A DNA stretch of 64,000 bases from an uncultured Candidatus Rokubacteria bacterium (lineage in GTDB: Bacteria > Methylomirabilota > Methylomirabilia > Rokubacteriales > CSP1-6): positions 1 to 64,000 of the forward strand of contig CAWBMV010000007.1 in NCBI GenBank assembly GCA_963789955.1. The letters are read 5' to 3'. Made by a program: the position numbers. Positions 45,001-48,000 of the stretch are shown one piece after another. Numbering within the stretch: position 1 is the stretch's first letter; the number at the start of each line of letters is the position of its first letter.

Positions 45001-48000
45001 CGACGAGCGCCCGGAGAACTTCCCGACCGGCCCGAAGACTCTGCAGATGTTGAGTAGTCCGAGCCAAAAAAAACGCGCGCGAGCTGCGACGGTGAAGCAA
45101 TGCGTACGTCACTGCGTGCGAGCTCATTGCCGACCTCCTCGTGCTTTACATCGGAGGGAGCGAGCACTCCCCCGAATTCCTTGTCGTCAGAAACCGCGGA
45201 GTAGACCGATGACCTTGCCGAGAATGGTGACGGAGCGCCGGGCCGGATCGATGACGATCGGCGTCATCGTCTGATTCTCGGGCTTCAGCACGACGCGCGA
45301 CCCGTCGCGCATGAAGCGCTTGACGGTCGCCTCGGTCTCGCCGCCCGCCTCGGACTCCACCATCGCGACGACGATGTCGTTCGGCTGGGCCGAGTCCTGA
45401 CGCCGGACCAGCACCAGATCGCCGTCGCAGATGTGGGCTTCGATCATCGACTCGCCGCGCACGCGCAGCGCGAAGACGTCCTCGCCGCGCCCGGGTAGCG
45501 ACGCCGCGGCGATCGGCACCTCGCCCTCGCGATTCTCCTGGGCCAGGAGCGGCGTGCCCGCGGCGATCCGGCCGAGGATCGGGACCGCGTGATGTGCGCG
45601 ACCGCCTCCGGCCATGTCGGGCAAGGTCAGCGCCCGCGAAGTGCGTCCGACGCTTGGGCGCCGCTGTAGCTCGCCCTTGCGCTCGAGCGCCCGCAGATGA
45701 TCGAACGCGGCGCGCGGCGTGATCCGGAAGCCGCTCGCCGAGCTCGCGCACCGTCGGCGGCACGCCGTGCTTGGCCTGGAAGCTGCGCATGAAGCTCAGC
45801 ACCTCGCGCTGCCGGCTCGTCAGCTCACGCATCCGTCTTCTTCCTCCGTGCCGGGCAGTATCACTCAACTGGTGTTGACTAGTCAACAAAAAGCGAGTGC
45901 ATCGGGAAGTCGACACCACGGGGGTCAGAACCTTGGGACTACGCCGGCTCCCAGGGCTCGCAGACGGGGCAGGTCGCAAACCCCTGCTCGCGGGCCTCGG
46001 CGACGTGCTTGAAGTAGGCGCGCTCGGCCTCGGGAATCCGCGCGACCCAGGCGCAATCGCTCTTGTGAAAGAGGCGCGAGGTCCGCTGGGCGCAGTAGGG
46101 CTCGCCCGGCTCGACCGCGACGGTCGGCGCGGCCTCCACGGCCGTGCTCACGGTTCCGGCTTCGATGGGCACCGCGGTCGTCGGCGTCGGTTCGGACGCG
46201 GGGTGCGGCGCGATGATCGGATCGGGATCGTTGATGTGCAGGTTCGTCTCGACGGTCGCTCTGAACTCGTCGCTCGCTTTGCGGAACTCGCGAAGCGCGC
46301 GACCGATCATCCGCCCGAGCTCGGGGAGCTTTCCGGGTCCGAAGACCAGGAGGGCCAGCACCCCGATGACGAGCATCTCTTGAAAACCGATGTCGAACAT
46401 CGCGGCTAGAGTAACACGCGCTCTGAGGCTAGCCGACCCCGACGAGCCTCGCGAGCTCGGCGAACGAGGCGACGACGACGTCCGCCGCGTCGGCCGGCGC
46501 GCCGCCGGGCGCGTAGAGCACGGTGGGCATGCCGACCGCCTGCGCGCCGCGGATGTCCGAGGGGATGCTGTCGCCGACCATCGCGGTCGCCGCCCGCCGT
46601 GAGGCCGAGCCGCTCGAGCGCCATCCGGAAGAGCGGCGGCTCGGGCTTGCCGACGACGATCGGCCGCACGCCGGCCGCGACGGCGACCGCCTGCACGATC
46701 GACCCGCAGCCCGGCAGAAAGTCGCCGCCCTCGATCGGCAGGCGCGGATCGATGTTCGGCGTCACCAGCGGCGCCCCGCGCGCGGCGGCCCGCGCCGCGG
46801 CGGTGAGACGCTCGTAGCTCAGGTCGAAGTCGTTGCCGACGGCGACCACCGTCGCCGCGCGATAGTCCTTCACGTCCACCAGCTCGTGGCCGGCGCGGGC
46901 GATCACGGCCCCCATCTCGGGCGCGCCGATCGCCAGGACCCGCGAAGGCCCGCAGCGCTCGCGGATCACCTCGCCGATGATCTCGAGCGGCGTCAGCACG
47001 TGCTCGGCGACGGTCACGCCGAGACGGTGCAGCCGCTCGCGCAGATCCGTGCCGGTGGCGCGCGAGTTGTTCGAGACGAACGCGAGGGCGCGCCCGCTTC
47101 GGTGCAGCGCGGTGAGCGTTTCGTTCGCGCCCGGATTGAGCACGTCGCCGCTCCACACGCAGCCGTCGAGGTCGAAGACGAAGCCCCGCAAGGTCGCCAG
47201 GCTCGGCGTGGGCACGATCGCTAGGCCTCCGCTCGGGCGAAGTCGTCGATCGCGTCGGCGTACACGTCGCGCGTCCGCTCGGCGACGCTGGCCCAGCTGA
47301 ACTGCGCCTCGACGCGGAGCCGTCCGGCGCGCCCCATCGCGCGGCCGCGCGCGGGATCGTCGAGCACGCTGCGGATCGCCGCCGCCAGCACGTCGGGACG
47401 TCCGGGCTCGACCAGCACGCCGGTCTTGCCGTCCTCCACCACCTCGAGAATGCCGCCGACCGCCGAGGCAACGACCGGCGTCTCGCACGCCATCGCCTCG
47501 AGGTTGATGAGGCCGAACGGCTCGTAGACCGACGGGCACGCGAACACCGCCGCGTGGCTGTAGAGCTGCACGACCTCGGTCACGGGAACCATCTCGCCGA
47601 TCCACAGGACGTTCGGGTGCTCCGGCAGCACTCGCTTGAGCCGCGCCTCGATCTCCGGCGTGTCGGGCGCCGACGCGCACAGGACCACCTGCACGCCCTT
47701 CGGCAGCTTCCGGGCCGCCTCGAGCAGGTGAAAGATTCCCTTCTGGTCGGTGATGCGCCCGACGAAGAGCACGTAGGGCTCGCGAACGCCCCGGCGCGCC
47801 AGCACCTCACGCGCCTCCGTTCGCTTGAACCGGTCGGGATCGATGCCGTTGTGGATGACGACCACGCGCTCCGGCTCGACCTTGAAGTGCTCGAGGATGT
47901 CGTCGCGCATGCGACGCGAAACGGCGATGACCCGGTCGGCCGCCTCCACCGCGGTCTTCTCGATCCAGCTCGAGAGCAGATAGCCGCTGCCGAGCTGATC

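Follow-up and report, generated by a model that had tools for sequence, protein, structure and literature searches.

A predicted LexA operator with CTC outer bases and a small candidate SOS regulon in Rokubacteriales

Known SOS boxes and the Rokubacteriales palindrome

The Gram-positive SOS box is given in the cited excerpts as CGAAC-N4-GTTCG for B. subtilis and TCGAAC-N4-GTTCGA for M. tuberculosis (PMC3323433, PMC3381160, PMC9578287), and a ChIP-seq table places lexA, dnaE2 and Rv2578c among the LexA targets of M. tuberculosis (PMC3381160). By 2021, 17 distinct LexA motifs had been counted (PMC8565304), and that of Balneolaeota is a direct repeat (PMC7739468). The excerpts also document SOS networks without recA in Geobacter, Bdellovibrio, Myxococcus and Deinococcus (cited in PMC13148647), and the types of target gene described below are established SOS genes elsewhere (PMC3323433, PMC8565304, PMC3381160, PMC7739468).

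In a window of 64,000 nucleotides, which is the whole stretch of DNA that was analysed and which comes from an uncultured member of the Rokubacteriales, we observe a palindrome in the promoter of lexA. As far as the excerpts describe the Gram-positive box, the two have in common the palindromic form, a 4-base spacer, the AAC-N4-GTT core and targets of the lexA, dnaE2 and Rv2578c type, but the outer bases are TCG or CG in the Gram-positive box and CTC in Rokubacteriales, where AAC may also become GTC or ATC. Among 182 half-sites, from sites picked by matrix, none has a G where GAAC has its G, and GAAC-N4-GTTC is absent from all 141 regulon upstream regions (0/40 lexA, 0/24 imuA, 0/28 SplB-like, 0/49 96-aa). 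The FNR box is TTGAT-N4-ATCAA; this pattern, with half-sites in the opposite orientation, has no occurrence in the lexA, imuA, SplB-like and 96-aa upstream sets. None of eight known LexA motifs tested at the lexA promoters was found more than once in 40, and the palindrome differs from all the lineage-specific motifs that the excerpts give. Judged by its sequence, the box is a new variant of the Gram-positive AAC-N4-GTT core with other outer bases and not an unrelated motif, so that the description of a new LexA box in the first-pass annotation is right for the outer bases and goes too far for the core.

A canonical LexA, a motif of its own and a regulon of translesion polymerases together with SplB-like and UDG-linked radical SAM genes are what the lineage has in common with other lineage-specific LexA systems, to the extent that the excerpts cover these. 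Literature searches for the box strings, and for LexA or SOS together with Rokubacteria, returned nothing, and the motif could be recorded in subscription papers, supplements, CollecTF, RegPrecise or Erill 2016; those for Methylomirabilota with LexA returned nothing related, as judged by title and abstract start, and no paper among the matches listed names Methylomirabilis or NC10. With 17 motifs known by 2021, a new one is by itself incremental. For soil bacteria that are known here from metagenome assemblies alone, the locus offers a candidate operator and a candidate SOS regulon that can be tested.

The lexA gene and its promoter

The C-terminal 145 amino acids of the window's lexA pass the TIGR00498 profile (131 bits, cut-off 111), and its N-terminal residues are encoded in a different frame, in line with the frameshift noted at first pass. 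Relative to 6/6 congeners there is one extra base, with the gap placed at 45730 in five and at 45724 in the sixth, and contigs from three of four RNA runs have one base fewer at 45730-45732, the fourth run scarcely covering the position. Since the runs compared over lexA represent related strains and not the source sample, the frameshift is probably, rather than certainly, an assembly error. Several other genes of the window also seem frameshifted in the ORF list, such as a sigma54-type regulator at 48393-49776.

The protein has the canonical features of LexA, namely a wHTH and an S24 domain, an Ala-Gly cleavage site and a Ser-Lys dyad; in the alignment the motifs IAAG, GESM and TVKR are present, with Ala-Gly, Ser and Lys retained. 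An intact congener LexA reaches 193.5 bits on TIGR00498, eight full-length LexA structures are matched at E<1e-31, and the nearest relatives (69-94% identity) come mostly from Ca. Rokuibacteriota or Methylomirabilota records. The solved structure closest to the LexA encoded at L002:1267-1935 is 3k2z, which we take to be the LexA of Thermotoga maritima, and both have a short ITPR turn before helix 3. We found a single LexA per genome.

Table 1. Coordinates of the features in the window and of the 96-aa gene
Feature	Position	Strand	Basis or remark
lexA	45187..45832	-	in the assembly, one extra base near 45730 separates the DNA-binding and peptidase domains
Ribosome-binding site of lexA, GGAGG	45843..45847	-	sequence
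-10 hexamer of lexA, GATACT	45857..45862	-	promoter search; TAnnnT in most relatives
Predicted LexA operator, CTCAAC-TGGT-GTTGAC	45864..45879	.	sequence and conservation
-35 hexamer of lexA, TTGACT	45881..45886	-	promoter search; position kept in relatives
Terminator-like hairpin and T-run at the end of the gene upstream, immediately before the -35 of lexA	45899..45916	-	0.6 expected in shuffles, weak alone; T-run conserved in relatives
tRNA-Gly(CCC)	37274-37348	-	
96-aa gene	C34:1248549-1248836		protein ends in ALAA, as does the genome's tmRNA tag ANTQLALAA

The first-pass annotation had placed the palindrome between the -35 and -10 of lexA (C7:45863) and upstream of lexA in 24 of 27 genera, and both statements hold. 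The promoter in question is the sole promoter-like site in 44800-46500 (shuffles: mean 0.0), and the exact core TCAAC-N4-GTTGA occurs once in the 6.77-Mb genome, at this site. When each genus is represented by a single genome, the exact core lies upstream of lexA in 32/42 genera, and in 36/42 when one mismatch is allowed, leaving six regions outside that limit; the set includes the unpublished G025 and a genome (G117) whose contig ends 118 nt upstream, and upon their removal the exact core is found in 31/40. Among 38 scored lexA sites, loose patterns recover a -35-like hexamer immediately before the site in 35 and a -10-like hexamer immediately after it in all 38. Conservation is at least 90% in the columns of the half-sites and 40-60% in those of the spacer; related contigs from two RNA runs vary at spacer position 45870, with neither half-site listed as changed.

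Upon scanning 42 genomes for exact STCAAC-N4-GTTGAS we find 36 sites, 30 of which are at lexA by coordinates, one at the 96-aa gene, one at a SplB-like gene and four at unrelated or unresolved positions, and the reversed pattern yields two sites in the same genomes. No DNA-repair gene is evident by eye next to four exact boxes in relatives (G131, G129, G039, G038). An overlapping palindrome, GTTGAC-TA-GTCAAC (45874-45887), was rejected as a by-product of the -35 and the left half-site that is restricted to genus g1. The gene upstream of lexA (45939-46400, minus strand) has its end before lexA in many relatives; by eye its product presumably combines a TatA/B-like N-terminus with a C-terminal domain that is rich in Cys and similar to the metal-binding domain of Ada.

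This slot of the lexA promoter is occupied in other orders of the class by YATAC-N4-GTATR (G072, G144, G171, G157, G101 and the unpublished G096), TAAC-N4-GTTA (G061) or TCATC-N4-GATGA (G106), and in family f7 by TAGTC-N4-GTATA. Helix 3 of LexA reads T(P/A)RAAFDHL in Rokubacteriales as against VPRSVFDHL in five aligned genomes of the YATAC group. The link between helix 3 and box is loose, because G158, from another order, retains TCAAC boxes despite a helix 3 of DPHAVHDHL, and it is also confounded by kinship. Across the class, boxes grade into one another on a single C-N4-G frame alongside changes in helix 3, which makes the class well suited to following the drift of LexA specificity.

Candidate regulon and competing explanations

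The working half-site is (C/G)T(C/A)(A/G)(A/T)C, and its exact form is nearly restricted to lexA, the exact core being present in 0/24 imuA, 0/28 SplB-like and 2/49 96-aa upstream regions; the consensus CTCAAC-N4-GTTGAG proposed earlier is thus apt for lexA and too strict for the targets. There the half-sites are degenerate (CTCAAC, CTCGTC, CTCATC, CTAAAC) and the promoter position is fixed. A strict matrix from lexA sites only scores above 8 in 14/24 imuA, 11/26 SplB-like, 18/28 96-aa and 2/28 recA regions (shuffles below 1%). Matrices trained without the gene under test exceed 8 in 24/24 imuA, 28/28 96-aa and 19/26 Rv2578c/SplB-like regions, as against 1-3 of 28 recA regions and 1-3% of shuffles, the relatives compared not being independent samples. 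Scoring left out two genes of G045, imuA (22 nt upstream) and a divergent recA copy; the recA that immediately follows lexA in G158; weak SplB-like matches in G158 and G131; and 22 of 50 96-aa loci (genus duplicate or unpublished). These held-out tests and the controls support the LexA-operator reading and a small, mutagenesis-centred regulon, and they sustain the inclusion of imuA-imuB-dnaE2, the SplB-like gene and the 96-aa gene at first pass.

That list was incomplete, as it missed a further candidate member, C34:815368, where a box precedes a radical SAM gene related to TIGR03916 and below its cut-off (254 bits, cut-off 343.5, E 2.8e-75). Orthologues of this gene, which took no part in training, score above 8 in 11/12 and above 12 in 9/12, all 22-43 nt before the start; a fragmented 13th copy was left unscored. 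The SplB-like protein is likewise a relative and not a member of the Rv2578c family NF038135 (279 bits, cut-off 430, E 3.6e-83). No box was found in this genome at two uvrA genes, recN, ruvA or three dinB genes (scores at most 1.3), nor at ssb or recA; membership of such genes in an SOS regulon is not obligatory, and there are documented exceptions (PMC13148647).

When this genome is scanned with a combined matrix built from other genomes, the highest scores (23.7-20.0) go to the two copies of the 96-aa gene, imuA, the SplB-like gene and lexA; four sites exceed 20 and six exceed 18, compared with 0-1 and 2-3 in shuffles. Below about 16 the genome has fewer matches than the shuffles, which precludes the calling of weak members. 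Four candidate sites, at parA (C36:35997), C22:89523, C1:484723 and C16:10979, score 13-18.5, in or near the shuffle range, and were not called; the box-like sequence before parA is GCAAACACGTGTTGAC (13.1). The earlier genome-scan ranking stands only in part. The lexA-only matrix puts the SplB-like site sixth (12.7) and not fourth, and gives the imuA site, CTCGTC-N4-GATTAG, 0.2 and not 14.4. Furthermore, the two 96-aa copies formerly taken as two top sites are not independent; they lie in near-identical duplicated segments (C31:7859-9872 and C34:1247674-1249685) and are therefore counted once. The duplication may stem from the merging of two strains, the assembly having 5% contamination.

From these comparisons we consider it very probable that the single LexA of Rokubacteriales has the palindrome as its operator. 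As a dimer, LexA would bind the 16-bp (C/G)T(C/A)(A/G)(A/T)C-N4-G(A/T)(C/T)(G/T)A(C/G), located between the -35 and -10 hexamers or over the -10, and would thereby block RNA polymerase, and RecA-stimulated self-cleavage of LexA would lift the block. The predicted regulon would comprise lexA with its near-perfect site, imuA-imuB-dnaE2, the Rv2578c/SplB-like and TIGR03916-like radical SAM genes and the 96-aa helical protein, with recA outside it in the window's family, where a different element is found instead. We infer binding and repression by LexA, rather than by another protein, and induction of the genes, from the location of the best sites at lexA, the established SOS role of the targets and the finding of only one LexA.

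It is improbable that a different repressor, of a DdrO-like or phage-type-S24-like kind, acts on the palindrome to control lexA and the mutagenesis genes. Such a protein would have counterparts in the non-LexA SOS repressors that the cited excerpts report from Bacteroidetes and Francisella (PMC8565304, PMC13148647), and the box kept in G158 with an altered helix 3 would suit it, but lexA itself has the best site (30 of the 36 exact sites), the remaining two S24 matches of the genome are weak and have no evident HTH by eye, and the geometry is that of the Gram-positive LexA box. Could LexA instead bind nowhere but at the near-perfect lexA site, with the 96-aa gene as a possible addition, while a second factor acts on the degenerate sites (TCGTC/TCATC) of imuA and of the radical SAM genes? 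The absence of the exact core from imuA and SplB-like regions and the many target sites near 0 with the strict lexA-only matrix would be explained by this, yet half-sites swap among imuA orthologues (CTCAAC in some genera, CTCGTC in others), the lexA of G034 itself has CTCATC, and a perfect box stands before a SplB-like gene in G117 and the 96-aa gene in G084, which makes a second factor very unlikely.

We give least credence to the suggestion that promoter sequence produces the palindrome incidentally, in that its GTTGAS half mimics or abuts the -35 and -10 elements. TTGAC is indeed contained in GTTGAC, the sites always touch promoter elements, and at recA of genus g26 the right half is the -35 itself. 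Against this, conservation extends to both halves while the spacer between them is free, the palindrome is absent from the recA, radC and dprA promoters of the window's family, and, among 350 sigma70-like matches in the genome, the five that score above 12 are all at regulon genes and the other 345 score 12 or less, by which this explanation is already largely refuted.

The 96-aa protein was found in 128/150 family genomes and has 146 representatives in an unnamed library; Pfam, NCBIfam, PHROGs, Atlas, PDB sequences and Foldseek gave nothing usable for it. Its structural model is all-helical (pLDDT 81.9, pTM 0.45). Among 50 orthologues, including the unpublished G105, 49 end in AA and 38 in LAA, as against 57/3766 long ORFs. 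An ssrA-like tail ending in AA is a ClpXP-type degron. From the resemblance of the tail to the tmRNA tag we infer such a degron here, and hence an unstable, short-lived effector; a literature search linking an ssrA-like tail or ClpXP to SOS found none. The protein is therefore a candidate new SOS effector carrying a built-in putative degradation tag. Our first guess by analogy would be a division inhibitor, because division inhibition, described in the cited excerpt as a core SOS function of Gram-positive bacteria (PMC7739468), is otherwise unassigned here; a RecA modulator would be the second.

recA and a second promoter element

Upon scoring recA with the LexA-box matrix in the window's family, we find 0/22 regions above 12 and 1/22 above 8. 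In genus g26 of family f4, CTCATC-TTCT-GTTGAC lies over the recA -35 in 6/6 genomes, only the left half being independent evidence since the right half is the -35, and in G158, of another order, two boxes precede the adjacent lexA-recA genes. On this sequence evidence, a regulon without recA, as originally described, is valid for the family and not across the order. The family is thus like Geobacter, Bdellovibrio, Myxococcus and Deinococcus, as far as the cited account of these goes, in that recA appears not to be under LexA, but unlike them it has a conserved alternative element at recA, and one genus of the order has a LexA box instead.

This second palindrome, YGTM-N10-GACA, adjoins the TTGAC -35 of recA (C1:862320-862342 in G000). 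When family recA promoters are picked by the right half alone (SACATTGAY, 21/22), YGT occurs exactly 14 bases earlier in 21/21. The pattern YGTV-N10-SACA-TTGAC is present in 23/23 family genomes (1-18 copies; reversed control 0), and outside the family in 3/7 f4 genomes (once each), 0/1 f3 genome and 1/6 genomes of other orders. That TGTC before recA is merely the end of the upstream gene fits G000 and was rejected, since relatives have other upstream sequence.

We sampled 36 of more than 100 non-recA sites, from six genomes, and found 16 at Uma2 genes, three at comM-type YifB genes, two each at radC, comEA-type, NHL/Ig, aspartyl-protease and toxin-antitoxin genes, and six without a family; one was not scanned. 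A matrix from recA only exceeds 10 in 20/22 radC and 11/23 dprA promoters of the family (shuffles below 1%) and in 0/5 and 0/7, respectively, outside it, and no LexA box above 12 was found in the family's radC and dprA promoters. Conversely, the recA-element matrix exceeds 10 in 0/27 lexA, 2/20 imuA, 1/21 SplB-like and 4/50 96-aa regions. In this genome there are 13 element sites above 18 as against 2-3 in shuffles, and the top 19 matches include recA, comM, comEA, radC, rpsF-ssb and what we take to be a yraN-like gene; its dprA has the left half only, and no element was found at its comEC operon.

According to the excerpts, radC, comM, dprA and ssb of Haemophilus are under a common regulatory site, and in B. 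subtilis and S. pneumoniae competence induces recA (PMC5809987, PMC4630621). Within what these excerpts cover, the CRP-S/Sxy regulon of Pasteurellaceae and the ComK regulon of B. subtilis are similar in having a common upstream site before radC, comM, dprA and ssb; unlike CRP-S, the site here is an 18-bp palindrome of the TGT-N12-ACA type adjoining the -35, with many Uma2-family targets and none at the comEC operon of this genome. By this analogy, there is about an even chance that an activator of a competence-type regulon acts at the second element. Alternatively, the element may belong to a LexA-independent regulon for damage or foreign DNA, a reading that the prominence of Uma2 among the sampled targets would favour; neither a WYL-domain regulator (PF13280; PafBC/DriD-type control) nor SRAP was found in G000, which is 87% complete.

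The combined picture of the two elements could as easily be right as wrong. LexA would govern only mutagenic and direct-repair genes and the short-lived 96-aa effector, recA would be under an undescribed competence activator acting on TGTATC-N6-NNGACA (with radC, dprA, comEA, comM and many Uma2 nuclease genes), and the sister genus without the element would have recA under LexA. If true, there would be two mutually exclusive regulons with recA swapped between them within one order, the missing recA would gain a positive explanation in a second conserved element common to DNA-uptake genes, and the study of natural transformation in this soil phylum, which is uncultured, would have its first point of entry.

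As a separate observation, the alignment ends near residue 205 in 17/30 matches at the recA loci L229-L246, mostly within open frames of 490-840 aa, which suggests inteins. By eye, an intein-like stretch is also seen downstream of imuB (C22:145597-147693), in the expected place of dnaE2.
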